Positions 3,488 to 50,082 of a stretch of DNA of 53,864 bases are shown in pieces (positions within the stretch are counted from its first letter, which is position 1; the number at the start of each line of letters is the position of its first letter). Under the pieces are notes generated by a model. That model saw nothing but the letters and a program-made list of their open reading frames with translations, made no database searches and was not told the origin of the DNA. This DNA comes from a virus, in the IMG/VR virus record IMGVR_UViG_3300045988_098128, positions 1-53,864 of that record; one strand, given 5' to 3'. The position numbers and the translations under genes are program-made.

Positions 3488-3526
3488 AAAAAGAGAGCAA
3501 GGAATCACTTCCCTGTTCTTTTCTAT
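3486..3526. terminator. bidirectional intrinsic terminator (about 90 percent identical to 40548-40586)
   Basis: An A-run is followed by the stem gagagcaaggaa/ttccctgttctt with loop tcac, then a T-rich run. It lies directly after the stop at 3487. Confidence 0.7.
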
Positions 3527-3687
3527 TTTGCGTGTCTTGCAATGCTTAGTACGGCTTTCTCCGAAAGTCCCGCTGTTCTGTCGGTCGCTGTGGCGAGAAC
3601 TGTTACAAGTCGCACAATCAGCTTTAGCCGTTCCTCGGAGTAGCTTTGTAGTATCTCTGCTATCTCGGTTATAATTTGTTCCTTCAT
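3523..3687 (-). CDS. possible small protein (54 aa, MKEQIITEIAEILQSYSEERLKLIVRL...)
   Basis: Not in the ORF track because it is under 60 aa. The ATG at 3687 is preceded by GAAGGGAAG. It ends at the bidirectional terminator. Confidence 0.35.
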   Translation of the reverse strand: MKEQIITEIAEILQSYSEERLKLIVRLVTVLATATDRTAGLSEKAVLSIARHAK

Positions 3688-3769: not shown

Positions 3770-3886
3770 TTATTTGAGAAGTTTTTTATTTTTCTCGAGA
3801 AGTTTCGCGAAGCGCAAAAGAAGGATTATGCCTTTGTCGTTTAGTTTGCTTACGATATTTGCTAACTCAAATCTGTAATGCTTCAT
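3770..3886 (-). CDS. possible small protein (38 aa, MKHYRFELANIVSKLNDKGIILLLRFAKLLEKNKKLLK)
   Basis: Not in the ORF track. The ATG at 3886 is preceded by GAAGGGACAGACAG. Its helical character resembles the ORF at 3523..3687. Confidence 0.25.
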   Translation of the reverse strand: MKHYRFELANIVSKLNDKGIILLLRFAKLLEKNKKLLK

Positions 3887-4069
3887 CTGTCTGTCCCTTC
3901 TTTGTTGGAAATGTTTTCTAATTCAAGTGTAACATGCTTTTCGAGAGAAGACAATAGCCGAGTTTAATATTCCGTATTAAAATCAGATACAAAAATATAC
4001 TGGTTTTACATTCGACAAATTTATGCACTTATCGGCGCACATTCAATGTTGACAAACATTTAACAACGT

Positions 4070-4104
4070 AAAAGAGCACCTCATCTAGAAGAGTGCTCTT
4101 TTAC
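4070..4104 (-). terminator. intrinsic terminator ending the ncRNA candidate
   Basis: Stem aagagcac/gtgctctt is flanked by an A-run and a T-run, so it can work in either direction. Confidence 0.65.
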
Positions 4105-4458
4105 ACAGCAAATTCATAAACAAAGGAGGAACATGACAGAAGTCACGAAAGGAAACGGAGGGATTTGAACCCTCAAAGGTAGCCTTTTGACCGCCATACA
4201 ACCGATTCGCCGTTCCCGTGCGCGACAGCCCTTGCGAACCGCCGCCAACAAATGAGAAAACAAGACCGAAAGGAATACGGGCATGTTAATTCGCGCCTTG
4301 CGGAGTTGAACCGCCGTTGTACACGTTATGGTATCGTCTGCCGTTGAACGTATAGGCGCGATATCCGAGCGGTCGCACAGCGGAATCATCCGCGTTGCTC
4401 GGATATTTTAAAAGAAAGGAGTTTCAATATGAAGAACAACCAGAGTTCATTGTTCCAC
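4105..4458 (-). ncRNA. candidate structured ncRNA (about 350-385 nt) with two tRNA-like minihelix plus T-arm modules
   Basis: A consensus promoter lies upstream and a terminator downstream, and there is no credible ORF. Module H1 (4361-4406) is a 10-bp stem, atatccgagc/gctcggatat, with a nested hairpin. Module 4291-4361 has an 8-bp closing stem plus GCGG-TTCAACT-CCGC. Module 4151-4217 has a 7-bp closing stem plus GAGGG-TTCAAAT-CCCTC. Confidence 0.5.
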
Positions 4459-4464
4459 AACAAT

Positions 4465-4493
4465 ATTATAGCACGTTTAAACGCGTTTGTCAA
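4465..4493 (-). promoter_or_regulatory. consensus sigma-A-type promoter driving the ncRNA candidate
   Basis: On the minus strand: TTGACA (4493-4488), a 17-nt spacer, then TATAAT (4470-4465). Confidence 0.6.
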
Positions 4494-4518: not shown

Positions 4519-5136
4519 TTAATGTTTACTAAACAGCTTTGCAAACCAATTCAACTTACGCTTGTTACCTTGTTCAACATCGGATTCGTTTGTTGTCTCA
4601 ACGTTATTCTCGTCTGCGGCAGTGCTTTTGCCAACTGTGGCGTTCTGGGAGACGTTCTGAGGTGCATTAACAAACTTGTCAGATTCACTGACCGCATGGA
4701 GCGTTTGCGCCTGCACAGCGGTTTGTAGCGCGTTGTGGGCGAGTTCGGCAAACTTGCTGGCGTAGTCTGCAATCTGCCCATCACGTTCGTCAAGCATTTC
4801 CGTCTTCTGTTTCAGCTCGTCTGCCTGTCTGTCAATTATACCTCTGAGAGCTTCTACAGTCTCCTGTAGGCTCTTTATTGCTTCTGCGTTCAAATATTCG
4901 CGTCCTTCGTTTTCTACGCTCTCACAAGCCTGTGGTGCGTCACACACGTTTTCCGCAACTGCTTCTTGTTTTTTTGAGTTGCTATATAGTTTCAATGCAT
5001 CCTCGGAGATTTTTTTTACTCCGTCCTCGCTTGTCACTATATATTCTTCAAGACCGTTCCGCTTAATTCTTTGATATACCGATTGACTTGTCACTCCGGC
5101 TCTGTCGGCGAATTCGGCTATTGTGAGGTATTTCAT
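4519..5136 (-). CDS. replication-associated HTH (MerR/excisionase-like N-terminus) coiled-coil protein
   Basis: The N-terminus is YLTIAEFADRAGVTSQSVYQRIKRNGL. ATGA overlap with the Rep gene gives the same rep-orfX arrangement as theta plasmids of Firmicutes. Confidence 0.7.
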   Translation of the reverse strand: MKYLTIAEFADRAGVTSQSVYQRIKRNGLEEYIVTSEDGVKKISEDALKLYSNSKKQEAVAENVCDAPQACESVENEGREYLNAEAIKSLQETVEALRGIIDRQADELKQKTEMLDERDGQIADYASKFAELAHNALQTAVQAQTLHAVSESDKFVNAPQNVSQNATVGKSTAADENNVETTNESDVEQGNKRKLNWFAKLFSKH

Positions 5137-5825
5137 GGATTGCTCCTTGCTTTTGTGATTGAGAATTTAATGTGAGTTATACTTCTTCCCGTCCGCGTCG
5201 GCTCATAGGCTACACGCAAATCACTAACGGCGTTAATTTCGTCAACGGCAGTGTCGATTACGCGCTTGCGAAAATCAATAAAATCCGAATAACCGCCTAT
5301 TTGCATAAGCGTTTTCAAATTTTCAACAGAAACGGTATACTCGCCTATATTGGCATAGCTTTTAAGTATCTCGTACAAACGTATAGTGTGTTTCGATTCC
5401 ATGTTTAACACGGTTTGAAGCTGATATGCCGTATACGATTCTTTGAGTTCGAGCAAATAAGGCGCTAACCGCTTGTCAAGCTGAATCCTAACCCGCGATT
5501 CATTTTCGTATATTTCCGCACCCGAAATCCATGCGCATAGCTTTCTTACATTTCCGTCCACTATCCAGAATGACTTGTCGCGTATGGATTGCAGCGTTTC
5601 ACGGAGATTCTTGTAATTCTTGCCGTTTTGAGTAATTCCAAGTGATTCACACATATCTTGCAGATTGAAATCATACTCATAAAGTTCTTTATCATCGGGT
5701 TTTACCTTGCTTATCGTATACAATATGACTTTTTGCTCCTGTGTTGTCATTCCGTATCTTGACTTTTGAATTAGTTCGTTCTTTTTGACAACCAAATTAT
5801 TAATTTTTTTATCGCTATTTTCCAT
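5133..5825 (-). CDS. Rep_3 (RepB-type) plasmid replication initiator
   Basis: The N-terminal pattern NNLVVKKNELIQKSRYGMTTQEQKVILYTISKV... is typical of the Rep_3 family. The iterons lie immediately upstream. The start was set to the ATG at 5825, which follows AAGGGAG. Confidence 0.85.
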   Translation of the reverse strand: MENSDKKINNLVVKKNELIQKSRYGMTTQEQKVILYTISKVKPDDKELYEYDFNLQDMCESLGITQNGKNYKNLRETLQSIRDKSFWIVDGNVRKLCAWISGAEIYENESRVRIQLDKRLAPYLLELKESYTAYQLQTVLNMESKHTIRLYEILKSYANIGEYTVSVENLKTLMQIGGYSDFIDFRKRVIDTAVDEINAVSDLRVAYEPTRTGRSITHIKFSITKARSNP

Positions 5826-5840
5826 GGTTACTCCCTTCAT

Positions 5841-5884
5841 GTTGAAAACTCTGTGTAAAACCTTGTTGAAAACCTTGTTGAAAA
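5841..5884. repeat. short direct repeats (gttgaaaac x3, ccttgttgaaaa x2) between the rep start and the iterons
   Basis: Read directly: gttgaaaactctgtgtaaaaccttgttgaaaaccttgttgaaaac. Confidence 0.8.
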
Positions 5885-5926
5885 CTGCAAAAGAACAATT
5901 TTCCCGTGTGTTTTCTCGGTTTTACA

Positions 5927-6038
5927 GTTACCAAATGTCCTGTTTATCGTTACCAAGTGTCCTGTTTTACAGTTACCAAATGTCCTGCTATCCGTTACCA
6001 AATGTCCTGTTTATCGTTACTAAGTGTCCTGTTTAACA
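5927..6038. repeat. five tandem 22-23 bp iterons (GTTACCAARTGTCCTGYTWWHC)
   Basis: Copies lie at 5927, 5949, 5972, 5994 and 6016, contiguous and in direct orientation, upstream of the Rep_3 gene. Confidence 0.9.
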
Positions 6039-6039
6039 T

Positions 6040-6115
6040 TTCCCTACTTTAATTATATAAAAATAGTAAAATAATAAGTATTTCTTATAAAAGTAATAAG
6101 TATGTTGTTTCACGA
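6040..6115. promoter_or_regulatory. AT-rich putative DNA-unwinding region of the plasmid origin
   Basis: A very AT-rich stretch follows the iterons directly. aataagtat is repeated at 6073 and 6095. Confidence 0.5.
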
Positions 6116-6389
6116 ACTAAAGCGCATAAATTTTGCCTGTTGAAAACTCAAAAGCGAATACGCGGTTAGTAAGCAGGAAGAGAAAATTTTTACCATATTG
6201 TAATTTTAAGCTATCTGTCATGCCTTGTCAAGATGTTTTCTAAATATTGACAAACGTCTAAATAAACATTTTTCAACGCATTGGTAAACTGATTTACAAA
6301 CATATTGACAGGGAAGTGTATTTTAGGCAAATGCCGAAAATGGTTTGTTGAACAGCATTTGTAAACTTAAAGAAAGATTGACAAACCTA

Positions 6390-6418
6390 TTAACAAACCA
6401 CACTAAATAGTGTATACT
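6390..6418 (+). promoter_or_regulatory. possible promoter (TTAACA-17-TATACT) facing the convergent terminator at 6597-6632
   Basis: Spacing was read from the sequence. No ORF lies between it and the terminator. Confidence 0.35.
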
Positions 6419-6596
6419 GTTGAAGGAAACGAAATTAATGTAACTCAATCACGTTCCGCAACCAACTGTATAGAATCGCCCATTCTTTACAGTTTTTTCT
6501 TGCTATTCTTAAGTTCTATTAAAGCACCACTTATAAAGACAAGCGTGTTTATTGCTCATATCTTTAACGATTAAATCAACTTGCAGAAGATTAAAC

Positions 6597-6660: not shown

Positions 6661-7269
6661 TCAATGTTTCTCAACTATGCATTCATAGTATTTTGCGAGT
6701 TTATCTTCTCCCGCATCCTCATCGTCAAGGAAAGCGTGAGCCATTGCCGCATAGAAATCAACAGAGTTGAGATTAAACTCCTTGCCTATTTTGTAGTAAT
6801 CGGAGTACATCATGTTAATTGCAGCGTAAAATTCGGCAGGGTCGCAGTCATAGCCGTGCTGCCGTCTCACCTGCTCCGTCTGCTCAAAATTCCAGTGTCT
6901 CCCGGTCGAGCCATCGGCGTTTTTCATTTTCTCCGTCCACTCGTCCGCGTCCTCACGAGTAAGCTTGTCGTGCTTTTTCCCACGTTTGCCGTAGCTCTCA
7001 CGCTCACGCCCGTCATAATCGCGGCGGTCTCTCATGTCGTACTCACCGTAGTAGTCGCGCTTGCCGTAGCCGTCGTACTCGTCATAGTCAGGCTGACGGC
7101 GGCGGTCATAATCGGGGTATCTGTCCTCGCGTCTATCGTATCTGTCATAATCGCGCGGTCTATGGTCACGGTCATAGTCACGTTCTTGTCTGTCGTAGCC
7201 GCCGTATTCACTGCGCTTGTCCTTGCCGCTTGACATCATGAGCAGCCAGTTTGGATTCATCCTCTTCAT
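6661..7269 (-). CDS. hypothetical protein with about 100 aa of Arg/Asp/Tyr dipeptide repeats and a globular C-terminal domain
   Basis: A YDRQERDYDRDHRPRDYDRYDRREDRYPDYDRRRQPDYDEYDGYGKRDYYGEYDMRDRRDYDGRERE tract is followed by ...NMMYSDYYKIGKEF...AHAFLDDEDAGEDKLAKYY. ATGA overlap with the upstream gene. Confidence 0.7.
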   Translation of the reverse strand: MKRMNPNWLLMMSSGKDKRSEYGGYDRQERDYDRDHRPRDYDRYDRREDRYPDYDRRRQPDYDEYDGYGKRDYYGEYDMRDRRDYDGRERESYGKRGKKHDKLTREDADEWTEKMKNADGSTGRHWNFEQTEQVRRQHGYDCDPAEFYAAINMMYSDYYKIGKEFNLNSVDFYAAMAHAFLDDEDAGEDKLAKYYECIVEKH

Positions 7270-29353: not shown

Positions 29354-29391
29354 ACGAATAGCCCCTATCGGCTCTTACTGTAACCCGATTG

Positions 29392-29574
29392 TTACAGCGT
29401 TTTTATAGTGTATTTAGCTTTTCTCGAAGCGGTTATTTCAAGTATAGTGACCTCTTCGCGCGATTTCTTAATTTTAACGTCATTGCCGCGTTCCAAAATC
29501 TCGTTGATTATGAGAAGCGCGTCTTCTTTGACATACTTGTGACGGTGCGCGTGTTTCTCTTCTTCCATAGCCAC
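29392..29574 (-). CDS. hypothetical small protein (60 aa)
   Basis: ORF fills the gap between TerL and the portal gene. Confidence 0.45.
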   Translation of the reverse strand: MAMEEEKHAHRHKYVKEDALLIINEILERGNDVKIKKSREEVTILEITASRKAKYTIKTL

Positions 29575-33425: not shown

Positions 33426-33683
33426 ATGAAATACTACACACAGATGATTATCTCTACAGCCAGCTACACTACCGAGCTTGACCAGCCGCAGGAAATCGAA
33501 AAAAAGGAATTTACCCAAAAAAACGTCAATGACTGGTGCGAGCAGTACGCCGCCGACACTGGTGACAGCTCTGACATTGACTGCCTCGGCTTTGTCCTCA
33601 CCGACGAGAACGAAAACGAGATAGAAACGCTCTATTACCGAGAGCGTCGCGCCGATTATCACGGCTCACACAAAACCCACTAA
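33426..33683 (+). CDS. hypothetical acidic protein (85 aa)
   Basis: The RBS AAGGAGAA lies upstream. It is the first ORF after the promoter. Confidence 0.6.
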   Translation: MKYYTQMIISTASYTTELDQPQEIEKKEFTQKNVNDWCEQYAADTGDSSDIDCLGFVLTDENENEIETLYYRERRADYHGSHKTH

Positions 33684-33768
33684 GCAGAGTGACGGGAGCA
33701 ATCCCGTTAATGCGGTCCGGCAGACGGTCACAAACCCCGAAAGCCGAAAAGAAAGGAATTATCAAAAA

Positions 33769-35508: not shown

Positions 35509-35616
35509 GAAGTCAATTAATAAAAAAGCCGACCGAGCGGCTATAAATAGGGTTTAGGCTCGGTGCGTTCCCTCTTCGGAGGGAGGTATCTAACAAAATC
35601 GAAAGGTGAATCAAAA

Positions 35617-38442: not shown

Positions 38443-38883
38443 TCACAGTAAGTCTTTCCGCAGTTGCTTTACACCGTCGTAAAGCATCTCATAGTCCGCT
38501 TTGTTTATACGCCCTTTGCCGTACATCTTCTTGAGTATCTCATCTGCGTAGTCAAATAATGTGCGGTTTTCTGGATAAGCGTCTATATCTCCACGCGCCG
38601 CTCTGTACTCAAGTACCCCTATTACTGCTATGAGCATAACACAATATTGTGCCATCTTATGGTTGACATAAGTGTTTTTTGCTTTTGCGTCTTCATACTT
38701 CAAGCGAAGTATTTCGCCAAAATCGGTAGATTTGATATCTTCCCATTCCATTCCGTCCGGCAGTATCCGCAAAACCGCCGTCCACAAACCCGTTTCACGG
38801 TCATCCGGCAACTTGTAGACGTGCCGGAGAATCCACCAGCTTAAAAGCCTCTTGTTCATCGTATTTGGTTTATGCTTTTTCAT
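38443..38883 (-). CDS. hypothetical protein (146 aa)
   Basis: ATGA-type overlap with the upstream gene. Confidence 0.6.
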   Translation of the reverse strand: MKKHKPNTMNKRLLSWWILRHVYKLPDDRETGLWTAVLRILPDGMEWEDIKSTDFGEILRLKYEDAKAKNTYVNHKMAQYCVMLIAVIGVLEYRAARGDIDAYPENRTLFDYADEILKKMYGKGRINKADYEMLYDGVKQLRKDLL

Positions 38884-39581
38884 CAGTTTATGTTCCCGCT
38901 AAATTGCACATCGTAACTGTAGTAAAAATAGCCGTCTTGGAAATGTACAGTTTGCGAATCATCCCAAACATCCAGTTTGCCGCTGATTTTAGATACAGTC
39001 ATAGGGAGTTCGACATTGTTATCGGAATAATATCTTATATATCCCGACGAATCAGCTGCTATACGGTAGGAATCATTACTTACATCATAGCTAAAACCGT
39101 TTATCGATATGGCAGATGAAGTTGCTTTCAGCTCAACACTTGTTTTGTTGGTTGCCAAAAACTCAACGTAGTATTTAATCTCGCCCCAGTAGTTTTCTTC
39201 GGAGTAAACACGGCTGAACGAAATAGTGATAAAATCATCATCATACAGCACGTTGCTCGTATTTTGATAACCGCTATCATTTTCATATCCGCCATAACCG
39301 CCGGAACTTGACACCGTAGCCATACGCCGGTCGGAATCATAGCCGACTTCAAGTCCGTATGCTTCGGCAAGCGCGCGGAGCGGTGCATAAGTCGTGCCGT
39401 TGTAGGAAAACGTCATTACATCATTTCCGTTCGCGTCTTTCGGGCGGAATTCTTCTCCGTCAACGAGTATCTTTATCGACGGGTCTACATCAATCGTCAT
39501 GAGCTGCCCCGCCGCCAATATCGAGGTTGATAATGCGGTAACAATTCCGCAGGCTATAAGTATCTTCGTGCTGTTCTTCAT
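38883..39581 (-). CDS. secreted protein with copper-amine-oxidase N-terminal (stalk)-like domain
   Basis: A signal peptide (MKNSTKILIACGIVTALSTSILAAG) and the motifs KILVDGEEF...YNGTTYAPLRALAEAYGLEVGYD. Confidence 0.7.
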   Translation of the reverse strand: MKNSTKILIACGIVTALSTSILAAGQLMTIDVDPSIKILVDGEEFRPKDANGNDVMTFSYNGTTYAPLRALAEAYGLEVGYDSDRRMATVSSSGGYGGYENDSGYQNTSNVLYDDDFITISFSRVYSEENYWGEIKYYVEFLATNKTSVELKATSSAISINGFSYDVSNDSYRIAADSSGYIRYYSDNNVELPMTVSKISGKLDVWDDSQTVHFQDGYFYYSYDVQFSGNIN

Positions 39582-39705: not shown

Positions 39706-39817
39706 GAGAAAAGAAAAAAGAGAGAGAAAGAAGAAAGAAGAAAAAGAAAGAAAAGAACCAAAAGAAAGAATAAAGAAGAAAGAAGAAATAGAGAGATAAA
39801 AGAAAAGAGTAAGGGGG
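39706..39817. repeat. about 110-bp purine (GA) tract ending in a G-run
   Basis: gagaaaagaaaaaagagagagaaagaagaaagaagaaaaagaaag...aagagtaaggggg, with only a handful of pyrimidines. Confidence 0.9.
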
Positions 39818-39884
39818 CTCTATAGCCGCCCCCCAGCCCCGGCACTGTTCAGCAGAGCTGAACGACTTATAAGAGAAAAGAAGA

Positions 39885-39990
39885 CAAGTATAACTATATA
39901 TTATAGTATTGACTATAGATTTAAGTACATACCATCAAGTATAGTATATCTAAATTTTAAGTATTAATTATAGTATATCTTTATATAATA
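39885..39990. repeat. AT-rich block with short direct repeats
   Basis: tatagtatatct occurs at 39940 and 39969. tataactatat at 39889 also occurs at 32627. Confidence 0.7.
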
Positions 39991-40004
39991 TACGCAGTTT
40001 TCAA

Positions 40005-40105
40005 TATTTTTCTTTTTTCGCCGTCGCGTCGCCTTTCTGCGTTTCCGCTTTTACCGCTTGTTTTTCGTCCGATTGCGTTCTCGCACCCTCGCGTCCGTTT
40101 AAAAC
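40005..40105 (-). repeat. purine-rich (on the minus strand) element R3, related to R1/R2
   Basis: The reverse complement reads ...aagcggaaacgcagaaaggcgacgcgacggcgaaaaaag. Compare ggcgaggcgacggaatag in R1. Confidence 0.45.
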
Positions 40106-40267
40106 GCTCCACAACGTGCCAGAACCATCTGTGGTGCGTGTTGTTTGCTTTTTAGTGATTTACCTGTCTTGAATAATAACACGCTTTAAACGGCTTCTGT
40201 GACGTTCAGAACGCGTTCCGTCAAATCAGTTTCCCGCAAAAGTTTTACCGGATAGCGAACTTTGACA

Positions 40268-40333
40268 GTCAAACGAATGTCAATTTGACGTCAAACGGAA
40301 GTCAAATTGAATTCAATCGGAATTCAAACGATG
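40268..40333. repeat. three tandem 22-bp repeats (GTCAAACGRAWGTCAAWTTGA-like)
   Basis: gtcaaacgaatgtcaatttgac / gtcaaacggaagtcaaattgaa / ttcaatcggaattcaaacgatg. Confidence 0.75.
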
Positions 40334-40362
40334 TTTAACCGCTAATTAACAGTGATTTAACT

Positions 40363-40430
40363 GTTACAGTAACGTTACAGTAACAGTTACAGTAACGTTA
40401 CAGTAACAGTTACACTAACGTTACAGAAAC
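40363..40430. repeat. six tandem 11-bp palindromic units GTTAC-A-GTAAC (putative origin or operator array)
   Basis: Copies at 40363, 40374, 40386, 40397, 40409 (gttacactaac) and 40420 (gttacagaaac). Confidence 0.9.
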
Positions 40431-40548: not shown

Positions 40549-40586
40549 AAAAAAGAGCAAGGAATCGCTTCCCTGCTCTTTTTTAT
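40548..40586 (-). terminator. intrinsic terminator of the repressor gene (duplicate of 3486-3526)
   Basis: Stem agagcaaggaa/ttccctgctct with loop tcgc, flanked by an A-run and a T-run. Confidence 0.7.
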
Positions 40587-41002
40587 TTGCTTTGTTCTTT
40601 TGGTTCGCCACCGCCTGCTTGTTTTCGCCATTTCGCGACGTTCAAAGCGAATTTCTCTATCACTTTCCAGTCTTCCGGCTCAAGTTCGGCAAGTGCCATC
40701 ACAAATTGCTTCACAAAAGATTCATCGGATTCATTCACTAATTTTCCGAACGCATCTATCAATGCATCTTCTGTGTCTTTCGGGCGGAACATATCTCCCT
40801 TGCCCGTTCTAAGCCAATTTTCGGCAACACCGTATGTATTGCATATATCGGAGATAACTCTATCAGTGACACCTATTCTGCCTATCTCTATATTGCCTAA
40901 GTTCGAACGCGATATGTTAATTCCCGCCGCGAACTCTTCCTGTGTTATCTTGCAGGCTTTTCTGACAGCGCGGATTCTTTCACTGATTTTATCTTCGCTC
41001 AT
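40583..41002 (-). CDS. CI-like XRE-family HTH repressor (no S24 peptidase domain)
   Basis: Contains ITQEEFAAGINISRSNLGNIEIGRIGVTDRVISDICNTYGV. It is divergent from the early operon. The RBS AAAGGAG lies 9 nt upstream. Confidence 0.8.
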   Translation of the reverse strand: MSEDKISERIRAVRKACKITQEEFAAGINISRSNLGNIEIGRIGVTDRVISDICNTYGVAENWLRTGKGDMFRPKDTEDALIDAFGKLVNESDESFVKQFVMALAELEPEDWKVIEKFALNVAKWRKQAGGGEPKEQSK

Positions 41003-41029: not shown

Positions 41030-41058
41030 AATTATACCATCATTGCAATTGTTTGTCA
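41030..41058 (-). promoter_or_regulatory. consensus promoter for the repressor (TTGACA-17-TATAAT)
   Basis: Read on the minus strand. Spacing verified. Confidence 0.65.
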
Positions 41059-41103
41059 ATGACATTGGATAAAAATATTTTTTTATTTTTTGCTCGAAAA
41101 TGC

Positions 41104-41132
41104 TTGACAAGCGCATTTAAGAGTGATATAAT
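41104..41132 (+). promoter_or_regulatory. consensus early promoter (TTGACA-17-TATAAT)
   Basis: Spacing verified. Its -35 box lies 45 bp from the -35 box of the repressor promoter. Confidence 0.7.
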
Positions 41133-42259: not shown

Positions 42260-42434
42260 TGTGACCAATCTGCACACCCAGCCGCCGGAAGTAAAGCCAC
42301 GCAATGGACGCAAAGCCGCATCACATAACAAAATAGACCCGACAGATACAGCCGTCTGCCTGACCTGCACCGCAAAGAAATGCACAGGTGCATACGCTTG
42401 CTTTAAGAGAAGAAAAAAGGAGTTGGCAGGATGA
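42240..42434 (+). CDS. hypothetical basic Cys-containing protein (64 aa)
   Basis: ORF within the operon. ATGA overlap with the next gene. Confidence 0.45.
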   Translation: MPRYLYDVTNLHTQPPEVKPRNGRKAASHNKIDPTDTAVCLTCTAKKCTGAYACFKRRKKELAG

Positions 42435-43249
42435 AACGCAAAGAATCACTGAAAGAGTATCATTCCCAGCACTGTCTTTCCAAAACAAAGTTGTTCCGTA
42501 TCATCGACAAATGCCCCGAATGGTTCAAATACTGCGAAGACCACCCCGAAGCGGCAGAGGAATCCAAATCACTTCTGTTCGGCGCGGCACTTCACAAGTA
42601 CGTACTTGAGCCGGAATCATTCTTCGACGAATACGCGGTAATGCCGAACGTCGACAGGCGAACAAAAGCGGGTAAAGAAGAGTACATCGCATTTTCCGAA
42701 AGCATAGGCGAAAGAGATGTGATATCGAACGACGATTTCACCGTTATTCAGCAGATGGACGCAAAAATCAAATCATTCCCCCTCGCGAAATACCTGCTGA
42801 CAGGTGAAATCGAAACCTCGTACTACTATAAAGACAGTCTGACAGGAATAGACCTGCAAGCAAGACCCGACGTTTACAAGCGTGTCGGAGAGCGCGGATT
42901 GATAGTCGACCTCAAAACGTGTGCAAGCGCAGACAGCGATACTTTTCGCAAATCCGCAGTAAACTACGGCTACGATATGCAAGCCGCGATGTTTATCGAC
43001 GCTTGTACCACCGAATACGGTATCCCGTGCGACTTTGTGTTCGTTGCAGTCGAAAAAACACCGCCATATATGATAAATGTGCTGTCGGCTGACGAACTGC
43101 TTATCAAGTACGGCAGAGACAGGCTGAGAGAAGCCATAGGAATTTACAAAGAATGCTCCGAATCCGGCAACTGGTACGGTTACAACGGATTCTCAGGCAT
43201 TATAAACAACCTCGGATTACCATCATATTTAGCAAAGGAGATACAGTAG
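42431..43249 (+). CDS. PD-(D/E)XK recombination exonuclease (DUF3799/RecE-C-like)
   Basis: Contains ...ARPDVYKRVGERGLIVDLKTC... (D...D.K). It is adjacent to the annealase gene. Confidence 0.7.
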   Translation: MKRKESLKEYHSQHCLSKTKLFRIIDKCPEWFKYCEDHPEAAEESKSLLFGAALHKYVLEPESFFDEYAVMPNVDRRTKAGKEEYIAFSESIGERDVISNDDFTVIQQMDAKIKSFPLAKYLLTGEIETSYYYKDSLTGIDLQARPDVYKRVGERGLIVDLKTCASADSDTFRKSAVNYGYDMQAAMFIDACTTEYGIPCDFVFVAVEKTPPYMINVLSADELLIKYGRDRLREAIGIYKECSESGNWYGYNGFSGIINNLGLPSYLAKEIQ

Positions 43250-44112
43250 TGAGAAACGAAGAATCCACCACAAACGTTCAGGAATACGCACAAGCCCCGA
43301 ATATGCCGCAGTCGGCTAATGTACCCACAGGAGACATAAATCAAGGCACGGTGCTCATAGAGAGCCAGAGAGCCATTGCAGAAGCGCAGGGCAAACTTAT
43401 AATTGCACAACGTTTCCCGCGTGACCCCATCAGAGCATACGCGAAGGTCATGGAAGCTTGTCAGAGACCTTCACTTGCAAATTCAGCTTTCTACAGCTAC
43501 AGCCGCGGCGGGGCTTGCGTTTCCGGTCCTACTATCAGATTTGCGGAAGAGCTTGCAAGATGCTGGGGAAACATAGACTACGGCATTAAAGAACTTTCTC
43601 AGGATACCGGAAAATCGGAAATGCAGGCTTATGCATGGGATTTGGAAACAAATACAATCAGCACCCAGAACTTTACCAATCCGCATATACGCGAGACAAA
43701 GACAGGTTCGGTGCAGCTCACGTCACAGCGCGATATATACGAGCTTAACGCAAACATGGGCGCAAGACGCTTAAGAAGTCGCATTCTCGCGATTCTTCCC
43801 GCCGACCTCGTTGAAGACGCAATCAAGAAGTGCAAAGAGACTATAGCCGGAAAGTCAGATGAACCGCTTGTTGACAGAGTAAGAAAGATGGTTGTTCAGT
43901 TCTCGAAGTTCGGCGTAACGCAGGAACAGATAGAAAAACGCCTCGGCAGAAAAATAGACACCATGAACACAGAAGACTTCGTTGAGTACGTCGGAATTTT
44001 CAATTCGCTCAAAGAGGGCGCGTCGAAAATCGCAGAATGGTTTGAATCAGCTCCCGAAGCAAACGAACTCACAGCTAATATCGAAGCGGCAATGAAAGCA
44101 GAGCAGAAATGA
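43249..44112 (+). CDS. RecT/Red-beta-like single-strand annealing protein (probable)
   Basis: Called from its position after the exonuclease. The GTG at 43249 follows AAAGGAG and overlaps the upstream stop. The family call rests on weak pattern similarity only. Confidence 0.55.
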   Translation: MRNEESTTNVQEYAQAPNMPQSANVPTGDINQGTVLIESQRAIAEAQGKLIIAQRFPRDPIRAYAKVMEACQRPSLANSAFYSYSRGGACVSGPTIRFAEELARCWGNIDYGIKELSQDTGKSEMQAYAWDLETNTISTQNFTNPHIRETKTGSVQLTSQRDIYELNANMGARRLRSRILAILPADLVEDAIKKCKETIAGKSDEPLVDRVRKMVVQFSKFGVTQEQIEKRLGRKIDTMNTEDFVEYVGIFNSLKEGASKIAEWFESAPEANELTANIEAAMKAEQK

Positions 44113-44784: not shown

Positions 44785-45022
44785 GAGACAGCTTGTAGAT
44801 GAGCTGCACAGAAACTGGAAAACACGCGGCTACACCGACGGCGGAATGGCGGAATTGCTCGAAATAACACCGAAAACAATTCATTACAAACTCAGCGGAA
44901 ACTTCCCTCACAACGGCTACAAAGCGCATTTTAAGGTCAACGAGATATTACAGATAATACACTATCTCGGCTTCAAACTCTATCTTGTGAGAGAGGATGG
45001 AGAACATGGCATTAATCAGTGA
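44756..45022 (+). CDS. hypothetical HTH-like protein (88 aa)
   Basis: ORF within the operon. Contains GMAELLEITPKTIHYKLSG. Confidence 0.5.
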   Translation: MKKVTEIIDERQLVDELHRNWKTRGYTDGGMAELLEITPKTIHYKLSGNFPHNGYKAHFKVNEILQIIHYLGFKLYLVREDGEHGINQ

Positions 45023-45812
45023 CAAGTGGAAAAACGAACTCAACTCGCTCTCTCAAAAGGACTATATTACGCTGACAAAAGCCATTTTGTTTGACCTTCC
45101 AGAACCACAGATATCCGCGAACAATCAGTACATAGCAGACAGGATATATGCAAGTCTGAAGGAAAGGACAAGAGCTAAAGAGGGAATGCAAAAAACGAGA
45201 AGGGAACGTAACAACTCCGTAACGTTACAAGAATGTTACAGTAACAACTCCGTAACGTTACAAGAATGTTACGGACAAGAAGAGAGAAAAGAAGGTGTCC
45301 CCCCTTGTTCCCCCCTTCCTCTTTCCCCCACACCCCCTATTACTAACCCCCCTATAATCCCCCCTTACCAAGAAAAAAGAGAAGAAGCACTAACGGGCGT
45401 GTGCGCGGGCGCGTGTGAGGACGAGCAGATTTCCTTTGAAGGCTTTGAACCCCTTGACCCGCCGGAATCCGAGGTTAAGCACAGAAAACCGACGATAGCG
45501 GAGCGTTTTGATGCATTATGGGCAGAATACCCCAAGAAAAACGGCAAAAAGAACGCTTTTGAGAGCTATCAGAGAGCTATAGCAGCCGGAGTGACCGACG
45601 AGACTATTGCCGACGGTATCAGGAGGTACAAGGACTACATAGCCGCAAAGCGCACGAGCGAACAGTACATACTTGCAGGCTCGACATACTTCTACCAGTG
45701 GCGTTGGCAAGACATATACGACACAAACACAGCCGACGGAAAAGACGAAAACGGAAAGCCGGCATGGATGTCGCAGGAAGACTGGGAGGAAATGAATGCA
45801 GTATTCGGATAA
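44997..45812 (+). CDS. replisome organizer / replication initiator-like protein with internal repeat array
   Basis: The C-terminal pattern FDALWAEYPKKNGKKNAFESYQRAI...YILAGSTYFYQWRWQD, a Pro-rich linker and an in-gene 2 x 33-bp repeat. It is followed by the DnaC-like loader. Confidence 0.65.
   Translation: MENMALISDKWKNELNSLSQKDYITLTKAILFDLPEPQISANNQYIADRIYASLKERTRAKEGMQKTRRERNNSVTLQECYSNNSVTLQECYGQEERKEGVPPCSPLPLSPTPPITNPPIIPPYQEKREEALTGVCAGACEDEQISFEGFEPLDPPESEVKHRKPTIAERFDALWAEYPKKNGKKNAFESYQRAIAAGVTDETIADGIRRYKDYIAAKRTSEQYILAGSTYFYQWRWQDIYDTNTADGKDENGKPAWMSQEDWEEMNAVFG
45208..45273. repeat. 2 x 33-bp exact-like tandem repeat rich in GTAAC/GTTAC boxes, inside the organizer gene
   Basis: gtaacaactccgtaacgttacaagaatgttac(a/g) occurs twice, encoding NNSVTLQECY twice. 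Confidence 0.9.
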
Positions 45813-46638
45813 TCCGTTCGCAGACACACTTACGAAAATAGCGCAAGCCGCAAAAGAAGCGAATCCGCGAGAGGACGGAGACTATACCGAAAACGGACTG
45901 CTGTATTGCGGAAAATGCCACACTCCGAAAGAGACAACAGTCACACTCGGAGGACGCGAAACAAAAGTGGCGTGTATGTGCAAATGCCGAGAAGAACAAG
46001 CGGAAGCCGAACGGAAAAAGTTCATCCACGACAGCCGAGCGGAAGCACTCAAAGACAGCGCATACGGTGACAAGGCACTGCGTAACTGCTGCTTTGAGAA
46101 CGACGACGGCACAAACCCAGAGCTGACAAAGAAATGCCGGAACTACGTTGAAAACTTCGAGAGGTTCAGCGAAAGCGGAAAAGGACTTCTGTTCTTCGGC
46201 TCATGCGGAACAGGCAAAACATATGCCGCTCTTGAAATTGCCAACGCGCTGATGGATAAGCTCTATTCCGTCAAGTTCGCAACGTTCACGGCGATAGCGA
46301 ACGAACTCTTTGATAACCCCGAAAAGCAAGGATACATAAACCGCCTTGCACAGGACTATGACCTCTTGTGCATCGACGACTACGCGGCAGAGAGAAACAC
46401 CCCATGGATGAACGAACAGCTTTTTGCAGTGATAGACGCACGGTGCAAAGCTCACAAACCGCTCATAGTCACCACAAACCTCACGAGAGACGAAATGTTT
46501 GACAGAAAGAACATAGACCGATACCGTATCTGCTCCCGCCTGATGGAGCTGTGTATCGCGGTAGAGGTAAACGGCAAAGACCGAAGAATATCGGACTATA
46601 TCAAAACCAAAGCAGAGTTTGAAGACCTGAACCAATGA
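45796..46638 (+). CDS. DnaC/IstB-like AAA+ helicase loader with N-terminal zinc finger
   Basis: Walker A motif FFGSCGTGKTY, Walker B motif LLCIDDYAAE, and N-terminal CGKCHTP...CMCKC. Confidence 0.8.
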   Translation: MQYSDNPFADTLTKIAQAAKEANPREDGDYTENGLLYCGKCHTPKETTVTLGGRETKVACMCKCREEQAEAERKKFIHDSRAEALKDSAYGDKALRNCCFENDDGTNPELTKKCRNYVENFERFSESGKGLLFFGSCGTGKTYAALEIANALMDKLYSVKFATFTAIANELFDNPEKQGYINRLAQDYDLLCIDDYAAERNTPWMNEQLFAVIDARCKAHKPLIVTTNLTRDEMFDRKNIDRYRICSRLMELCIAVEVNGKDRRISDYIKTKAEFEDLNQ

Positions 46639-49611: not shown

Positions 49612-50082
49612 ATGGTTTACGAATGGAAAGAAGCGGCGCAGATTAAAGCGGACGCACAAAAAGCAGGAGAAATGTTAGAAAATTTGGAGAAGACTGTAGG
49701 GATTACTCCAAAGAATTTAGTCGAAGCAAACAGAGATGAATCAGCACCTCTGCACAATGAATTCGAGTGGAACGACACAAAAGCCGCCGAAAAATACCGC
49801 GAAACACAAGCAGGCTATATCATCCGCAACATATGTGTTGTGAGAGAAAGCGAAGAGAAACCGCCCGTCAGAGCGTTCTATTCCGTTACAACCGACGAAG
49901 AACGCAAATACGAAAGTCTGAATGTGATTATAAAAAGTGAGGACAAAACAAAGAAACTTCTTGAATCCGCATTAAGAGAACTTATCGCGTTCAAAGCGAA
50001 GTATTCAATGCTTTCCGAAATAGCGAATGTAATTAAAGCTATTGACGAAGTCCAGTGCGCAGAAGCGCAACGGAACAGATAA
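49612..50082 (+). CDS. hypothetical protein (156 aa)
   Basis: The RBS AAAGGAG lies upstream. Contains the motif SAPLHNEFEWNDTKAAEKYRETQAGYIIRNI. Confidence 0.6.
   Translation: MVYEWKEAAQIKADAQKAGEMLENLEKTVGITPKNLVEANRDESAPLHNEFEWNDTKAAEKYRETQAGYIIRNICVVRESEEKPPVRAFYSVTTDEERKYESLNVIIKSEDKTKKLLESALRELIAFKAKYSMLSEIANVIKAIDEVQCAEAQRNR

Follow-up and report, generated by a model that had tools for sequence, protein, structure and literature searches.

The replicon locus

We analysed a 53,864-nucleotide stretch of viral DNA (IMG/VR record IMGVR_UViG_3300045988_098128, positions 1 to 53,864; hereafter the window), which is a complete siphovirus genome from uncultured gut Clostridia, with emphasis on positions 4,519 to 6,115. 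There, where the late and early operons converge, lie an initiator gene of the Rep_3 family, a second gene coupled to it (hereafter the partner gene) and an iteron-bearing origin, the whole module having a promoter of its own. The first 55 bases of the window are exactly identical to its last 55, which marks the assembly as circular, with a unit length of 53,809 bp (plus the 55-bp overlap). We consider this element to be probably a temperate phage-plasmid, in which a Rep_3 iteron-type theta replicon occupies the position that an integrase gene holds in sister phages.

The initiator gene, rep (5133..5825, minus strand), encodes a protein of 230 amino acids (aa) that matches both Rep3_N (8.5e-35, 120.6 bits against a cut-off of 22.4) and Rep3_C (1.6e-18, 67.1 bits against 21.1) in Pfam, as well as PHROG 4402, "replication initiation protein" (1e-43). 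With both domains far above the curated Pfam cut-offs, its sequence is that of a full two-domain (WH1 plus WH2) Rep_3 initiator, in line with the N-terminal Rep_3 signature that the initial annotation had seen from sequence alone. We preferred the ATG at 5825 over that at 5840 as the start of rep because of its AAGGGAG ribosome-binding site. The partner gene (4519..5136, minus strand, 205 aa) begins within the end of rep: bases 5133-5136 read tcat on the plus strand and hence ATGA on the minus strand, such that the partner ATG overlaps the rep TGA, as noted earlier for this helix-turn-helix (HTH) gene. The nearest non-phage Rep proteins are plasmid initiators at 35-42% identity, from the rumen plasmidome and from Butyrivibrio, Clostridium and Geobacillus plasmids. 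Searching one genome per GTDB species returned a single close match to Rep and no isolate host, the match being a 36.9-kb contig binned in an uncultured Eubacteriales metagenome-assembled genome from Hadza samples.

Upstream of rep, five direct 22-bp iterons (5927..6038; core GTTACCAARTGTCCTG, or GGACAYTTGGTAAC in the rep sense) start at 5927, 5949, 5972, 5994 and 6016, spaced 22/23/22/22 bp, and this array outscores all other tandem repeats in the window (Tandem Repeats Finder scores of 151 and 171). Next to it lies an AT-rich block (6039..6115), likely a DNA-unwinding element, in which AATAAGTAT occurs twice, 22 bp apart, and in which GC content falls to 18% (12% at 6045-6110) against 46.6% genome-wide. 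A short repeat, TGTTGAAAAC, with a period of 12 and 3.8 copies, fills 5840-5885 and recurs once at 6138-6153. Within these repeats are four DnaA-box-like 9-mers at 12-bp spacing on the minus strand (5840..5885; TTTTCAACA three times plus TTTTACACA), placed between the iterons and the rep start, and a lone TTTTCAACA (6138..6146, minus strand) beyond the AT-rich block; 5 of the window's 15 TTWTMMACA sites fall inside this 300-bp origin, all in the rep orientation. A promoter-like sequence (TTGACA-17-TAAAAT, 11/12 consensus matches; 6203..6231, minus strand) reads across the origin into rep, giving the order, in the rep sense, of promoter, single 9-mer, AT-rich block, iterons, 9-mer array, AAGGGAG and rep. 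The iterons, the short repeats beside them and the AT-rich block with its internal repeat had all been described by the initial annotation, and each was recovered here at the same place.

The element is widespread, with the exact Rep protein found on 59 public contigs (indexed in 102 assembly-collection blocks). Many of these contigs measure 51-54 kb, and the longest reaches 56,164 bp; an NCBI assembly contains one as a stand-alone contig of 53 kb, and none of the 102 index blocks holds a contig of more than 200 kb.

Integrase slot, lysogeny switch and relatives

Evidence on lifestyle comes from what other phages carry at this position. With the DUF7841 gene (6661..7269), the last of the late operon, we fetched 78 IMG/VR loci. 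The sister phages L055, L056 and L058 are 90-93% identical to the window in nucleotide sequence through the tail-fibre and lysis genes, and this similarity stops at the DUF7841 stop codon (window 6664-6667), past which origin, rep and partner give way to other genes, along with one for a large serine recombinase of 558 aa (Resolvase 6.5e-25, Recombinase 1.2e-17, Zn_ribbon_recom). More distant phages likewise have a serine integrase or a tyrosine-integrase-like open reading frame (ORF) directly after the DUF7841 homologue. The module thus sits in the integrase slot of its sister phages, and within this temperate lineage the Rep_3 cassette and integrases replace one another by recombination. Because such near-identical sisters hold an integrase in the same slot, the lineage amounts to a natural experiment on switching between plasmid and integrated lysogeny.

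That the phage is temperate follows from a lysogeny switch elsewhere in the window. A CI-type repressor gene of the XRE family (40583..41002, minus strand, 139 aa; HTH_3 6.1e-11, 42.6 bits against a cut-off of 23), which is new relative to the initial annotation, is followed by a terminator and preceded by back-to-back consensus promoters (41031..41132), at 41059-41031 on the minus strand and 41104-41132 on the plus strand, each matching the consensus at 12/12 positions and bearing a TG extension.

The window also holds a separate phage-type replication set, as first suspected from the sequence alone and borne out here by profile matches, comprising an initiator/organizer (44997..45812, plus strand; PHROG 270, "replication initiation protein", 2.8e-25) and a DnaC-like helicase loader (45796..46638, plus strand; PHROG 50 1.5e-55, IstB_IS21 1.5e-9). 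The best reading is that the genome carries two replication systems, a plasmid-type one for the lysogen and a phage-type one for lytic growth. The most serious competitor would make the Rep_3 origin a second origin for lytic or early replication, in a phage that is virulent or lives in an unstable carrier state. Rep_3-like genes do appear in phage records (Lactococcus Skunavirus, a Microcystis phage, small Acinetobacter phages), whose lifestyles our search did not establish, and a purely lytic phage would fit genome-length contigs and a circular assembly equally well. We nevertheless judge this explanation unlikely, since lytic replication already has its own initiator and loader in this genome, since a CI-type switch is present, and since the rep module, with its own promoter at the operon convergence, is swapped for a serine integrase in the 90-93% identical sisters and stands beside CI-like genes in three relatives.

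Searches for an integrase or a partition system were made with Pfam over the called ORFs and ten of 25 further ORFs of at least 120 aa, picked as likely genes, with PHROGs over the early genes, and by six-frame tblastn with two tyrosine and two serine integrases from related phages. The Pfam search found no tyrosine or serine recombinase among the window ORFs, nor any match to ParA/ParB, ParM/ParR or TubZ/TubR, and six-frame tblastn with the four integrases gave nothing but a 60-aa match (E = 0.003) inside the rep frame. The absence of recombinases and of ParA/ParB or ParM pairs, which the initial annotation had noted by eye, thus holds at the level of profiles and six-frame searches. The tblastn match is a weak similarity (31.7% over 60 aa) between the WH2 region of rep (5169-5342, minus strand) and the large serine integrase of L055, and probably reflects a common winged-helix fold and not a recombinase remnant. 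A partition system is expected in large phage-plasmids, and the definition used in phage-plasmid screens does not need one.

These searches bear on a second alternative, in which the phage integrates after all, by a recombinase that profiles miss or by one of the host, at an attP-like site formed by a tRNA-like sequence (4150-4217) 300 bp past the partner gene. As an Rfam tRNA, that sequence reaches 20.7 bits where the cut-off is 29, an ORF at 49612..50082 has a sub-threshold match to an integrase arm-binding domain (E = 0.0075), and a single contig of 73.6 kb exists. We regard integration as very improbable, given that no catalytic recombinase domain turned up in the searched ORFs of at least 120 aa or in six frames, that none of the 59 exact-Rep contigs runs beyond 56 kb, and that the tRNA-like element lies within a promoter-to-terminator unit resembling a transcribed RNA.

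Conservation of the module extends well beyond the exact Rep. We recovered distant relatives with Rep identities of 71, 70, 62, 55, 54 and 50%, and in all relatives examined, which span 50-100% Rep identity, both rep and the partner gene are intact. Every relative with available upstream DNA has the AT-rich block, iterons, rep and partner (the AT-rich block being conserved in L035, L037 and L057), and those with 55-71% Rep identity also have the promoter and DnaA-like boxes. The iterons themselves change: the window and L037 (71%) share the core GGACATTTGGTAAC in five copies each, L035 (70%) has GGACATTTTGTAA in four, L057 (55%) GGGACGTTTGGTTATTGTAGA in two and L044 (50%) GGGTACAAATTCCCCATCTGAA in about three, such that four distinct cores accompany Reps of 100/71, 70, 55 and 50% identity and iterons shift with Rep while the layout is kept. 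L035 and L037 carry TTGACA-17-TATAAT at the position equivalent to the rep promoter. At the position of the window's 9-mer array, L035, L037 and L057 have TTTTCCACA or TTATCAACA, and beyond the AT-rich block there is one TTTTCCACA in L035 and in L037 and two in L057. Because the relatives' arrays include these canonical-looking boxes, reading the TTTTCAACA repeats of the window as putative DnaA boxes is plausible but unproven. This record leaves little room for the replicon as an inert, non-functional fragment captured from a plasmid: PMC12977533 describes phage-plasmid gene exchange as well as defective hybrids, yet we find the idea scarcely credible here, with rep and partner intact over such divergence, the origin layout maintained as the iterons change and the exact Rep recurring on 59 contigs.

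A CI-like HTH_3 gene adjoins the rep-partner pair in L035, in L038 and in L044, a more distant relative, where a Cro-like HTH_3 gene comes next. CI-like or unassigned ORFs at L035:11707-12162, L038:1920-2366 and L067:8934-9488, whose neighbours are rep-partner or an integrase, end in a hydrophobic stretch (e.g., AALAVCLAAILIGLLLY); those of L035 and L038 match HTH_3, and that of L067 has no Pfam match. These ends look transmembrane, and the proteins, if repressors, would be membrane-anchored. Two small conserved and mutually similar ORFs of 54 and 38 aa (3523-3687 and ~3772-3885, both minus strand) always lie between the rep module and the early-operon end; they have homologues in L035 (E = 9e-13 and 8e-4) and no family match.

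Taken as a phage-plasmid, the element would work as follows. In the lysogen, the CI-type repressor would silence the lytic promoters, while the promoter at 6231-6203 would drive transcription across the origin into rep and the partner gene. Rep_3 monomers would occupy the five 22-bp iterons and, with host DnaA at the flanking DnaA-box-like sites, melt the 12-18% GC block, after which theta-mode copying of the circle would fall to the host replisome. Rep-iteron binding would cap the copy number, by handcuffing and autorepression, a suggestion made by analogy only: such control is established for pPS10, F RepE and R6K pi. After induction, the phage-type initiator, the DnaC-like loader, SSB and an exonuclease with its possible annealing partner would carry lytic replication, followed by headful packaging.

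The initial annotation had already called the element a phage-plasmid, and that reading has since gained the repressor switch, the sister-phage integrase in the same slot and the 59 contigs of up to 56 kb; plasmid maintenance, like the dependence on DnaA, the control of copy number and the partner's function, is something we infer, and several points count against the reading. Virion or lytic DNA of a headful-packaging phage also yields a circular assembly and genome-length contigs, so that our circular assembly and contig sizes are supportive only. One contig of 73,621 bp, bearing the partner variant P0233, exceeds the genome by about 20 kb, and may include host flanks, be a concatemer or represent a larger variant. 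The closest cultured phage by large terminase (TerL), Clostridium phage Maintenon (46.6%), is integrative and has a LexA-like repressor. The DnaA-box-like 9-mers of the window differ from TTATCCACA by two mismatches, and only one fits TTWTNCACA. Lastly, the window has no dimer-resolution recombinase and no recognised partition nucleoside triphosphatase (NTPase). TerL searched against PLSDB gave no close plasmid-borne relative (at most 25% identity), and hence no isolate plasmid form of the phage.

The partner protein and segregation

No Pfam family matches the partner product above threshold, while HTH_17 (the MerR/excisionase-type HTH) matches 20 of 20 close homologues (best 1.9e-5). Its AlphaFold2 model consists of a winged helix (residues 3-52), a disordered acidic linker, a long helix (84-156; predicted local distance difference test, pLDDT, 80-97), a second disordered stretch and a terminal helix (187-201). 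The best fold match in the Protein Data Bank (PDB) is the DNA-binding domain of RacA (5i44; template modelling score 0.63-0.68 over the target), with MerR-family regulators, BldC and Xis ranking next. The tail, KRKLNWFAKLFSKH, has an amphipathic pattern (hydrophobic moment 0.63-0.68), with W197, L201 and F202 invariant; invariance within the close family extends to Q138, Q142 and Q144. A profile search over 1.84 billion representatives collected 1,188 partner clusters (50% identity, E <= 0.001), and a wider alignment of 32 members keeps the same build, many tails reading K/R-x-F/W-F/W-x-R-L-F-G. Searched against PDB sequences, singly and as a profile, the partner gave nothing significant, and against PLSDB plasmids it gave only two weak matches (E = 3e-4 and 1e-2).

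This architecture recalls RacA, pSK1 Par and RocS, which anchor or segregate DNA without an NTPase and combine a MerR-type winged HTH, a coiled coil, DUF536 and a MinD-like amphipathic helix (PMC11500499). The partner shares with them the N-terminal MerR-type winged HTH, the central long helix and the C-terminal amphipathic helix; it differs in having no significant PDB sequence match and, in the window protein, no DUF536 match. DUF536 (PF04394) is matched neither by the window partner nor by its 19 close homologues. Among the 32 wider members it is matched by five, of which the three inspected span only the first 17-18 of 43 profile positions; the best match, that of P0093, reaches 26.4 bits (cut-off 20.7) over profile positions 1-18 of 43. 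Membership of DUF536 not being established, we do not file the partner in that family, and propose, by analogy of build, that it works like Par and RocS in segregation. It would bind DNA through its MerR-type winged helix, oligomerise through the long helix and anchor the plasmid through the C-terminal amphipathic helix, and such anchoring would make it segregationally stable with no ParA or ParM motor needed, a mode proposed for pSK1 Par and RocS. As an alternative, the partner could be purely regulatory, e.g., in copy control of rep.

A broader proposal, which we put forward tentatively and rate as somewhat less than evenly likely, is that the partner represents a large unnamed family of motor-free segregation proteins (MerR winged HTH, coiled coil, MinD-like membrane helix), either remote relatives of pSK1 Par and RocS or convergent with them, which together with the Rep_3 origin would form a two-gene cassette of Clostridia temperate phages that is interchangeable with an integrase, the swap toggling between plasmid and chromosomal lysogeny.

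We regard the partner as the likeliest segregation factor, ahead of two other candidates that the initial annotation had put forward and that found no support on closer inspection. The ribbon-helix-helix (RHH) ORF at 32870 matches nothing related to partition, has only a sub-threshold NikA-like match and heads the packaging operon. The repeats at 39.6-40.6 kb, suggested as a partition site, include a field at 40.26-40.54 kb past the repressor-gene terminator, in which six GTAAC(N)GTTAC palindromes (40357-40424) are spaced 11-12 bp apart. Their 10-mer GTAACGTTAC occurs elsewhere in the window only within the phage-type initiator gene (45219, 45252), inside an exact in-frame 33-bp duplication (45208-45272), and on this ground we rejected the field as a centromere. 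Near the palindromes are 11-bp GTCAAACGRA repeats (40262-40330), TATAGTAT repeats in a stretch of 19% GC (39870-40010) and a polypurine tract of 100 nt (39706-39808). From its sequence, the palindrome field, together with the 19% GC stretch, seems rather to belong to the phage-type replication system, and the region may be the origin used in lytic growth.

Upstream of the rep promoter, a field of short A/T-rich repeats (6240..6400; TTGACAAAC, TTTACAAAC, TTAACAAAC and GGTAAAC) holds possible binding sites for the partner protein, or merely promoter -35 boxes. We rejected TTGACAAAC as a specific operator, its exact copies being found also at the repressor-promoter -35 and about 190 bp upstream of terS; since these copies occupy promoter-like positions, it may be merely an extended -35 box. 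The field differs in relatives, with TGTTAAA at 11-bp spacing in L035 and L037. All contigs with Rep at 98% identity or more have one and the same partner HTH type, so that comparing HTH with upstream repeats has no power. On the opposite (plus) strand, a promoter-like TTAACA-17-TATACT (6390-6418) precedes a hairpin (6464-6494) with a T-run, and 6390-6500, between the late-operon end and the rep promoter, may encode a small RNA of about 75 nt.

Just past the partner stop codon, a perfect promoter (TTGACA-17-TATAAT with TG; 4493-4465, minus strand) is followed by about 300 nt without a called gene that end in the tRNA-like domain (4150-4217) and a strong terminator hairpin (~4068-4100). The domain is cloverleaf-like, with a 7-bp acceptor stem, a T-arm (GAGGGTTCAAATCCCTC) and no 7-nt anticodon loop, and a second T-arm-like hairpin, GCGGTTCAACTCCGC, lies upstream of it; ARAGORN found no tRNA or tmRNA in the window. 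Sixteen sequence variants share a common predicted fold (-96.7 kcal/mol), with several one-sided changes and no double-sided ones, and in L035 and L038 the slot is filled by a CI-like HTH_3 gene. The unit (4055-4493, minus strand) may be a new phage RNA. One could speculate on an immunity role by analogy with the P1 c4 and P4 CI RNAs, which are processed by RNase P.

Known systems and other features of the genome

As a class, phage-plasmids are well established (Pfeifer et al. 2021, PMC7969092). Since their lifestyle is already known from other phages, the element described here is an addition to the class in uncultured gut Clostridia. It stands out by lacking a partition NTPase, by its partner protein of Par/RocS-like build and by the clean substitution of integrases for the cassette among its sisters. 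Good documentation of phage-plasmids exists for Enterobacteria, Bacillus and C. difficile, and to our knowledge there is hardly any for the uncultured Clostridia dominant in the human gut.

The replicon itself resembles Rep_3 plasmids with a rep-orfX pair, of which the lactococcal repB-orfX plasmids, with iteron-controlled theta replication, are familiar examples; the Acinetobacter Rep_3/OrfX plasmids (PMC13141974) belong here too. Shared features are the two-domain initiator, iterons of about 22 bp with an AT-rich block upstream and a small DNA-binding ORF downstream, whereas the window module is embedded in a 54-kb tailed-phage genome. Among phages, the P2-like Burkholderia phage KS14, whose prophage was recovered as a plasmid by plasmid preparation (PMC3091744), is likewise temperate and tailed and has an initiator of Rep_3 type (gp37; E = 4e-14, 23% identity to the window Rep). 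KS14 is, however, a proteobacterial myovirus with a ParA-like protein and a serine recombinase, both of which the window phage lacks, and the window phage has in addition a separate phage-type replication module.

Closer in host are the temperate C. difficile phages phiSemix9P1 and phiCD38-2, whose prophages are reported to be extrachromosomal (PMC6127314). phiSemix9P1, also from a Clostridia host, has a RepB-family protein 26.5% identical to the window Rep, but this protein is 404 aa long and parA is reported for the phage (PMC6127314). Its structural genes are unrelated to those of the window, and it is not among the top-listed TerL matches. Phage P1 carries ParA/ParB/parS, Cre-lox dimer resolution and an addiction module, counterparts of which were not found in the window. 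What it shares with the window is a two-replicon logic, with an iteron and DnaA-box plasmid origin served by its own initiator and a separate lytic replicon (PMC7969092).

These findings affect lifestyle calls in viromes, where "no integrase" is often taken as "virulent". The 2-kb cassette of origin, rep and partner could also serve as a minimal replicon for vectors aimed at gut Clostridia that are hard to transform, and it offers a test case for NTPase-free segregation.

As for the remainder of the genome, virion genes recognised by Pfam include an SPP1-type portal (2e-60), capsid protein E (7e-39) and Phage_Mu_F, alongside large tail proteins and a tape-measure-sized ORF of 964 aa with no family match. 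Packaging genes comprise a large terminase that shares 47% identity with the TerL annotated in phage Maintenon and a small terminase like P22 gp3 (GP3_package), and lysis is represented by an M23 endolysin. DNA-metabolism genes encode SSB, a PDDEXK exonuclease, an ERCC4 nuclease, RusA, dUTPase and HNH. At 42431-44112 (plus strand), the PDDEXK exonuclease (DUF3799, 4.5e-34) adjoins a PHROG 3657 protein (2.9e-103), which from its position may be the RecT-like annealing partner of the exonuclease.

On the repressor strand, beyond the terminator and the repeat field, lie a gene for a secreted Cu_amine_oxidN1 protein (38883..39581) and a 146-aa ORF, which may be accessory genes expressed by the prophage. 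Rfam matches, all at or above the gathering score, comprise a gut-2 RNA (29354-29401, minus strand, 51.1 bits), a type-P5 twister ribozyme (33683-33740, plus strand, 38.1 bits against a gathering score of 37.6) and a Pistol ribozyme (35527-35591, plus strand, 62.7 bits), the latter two, both self-cleaving, sharing one early-gene block.

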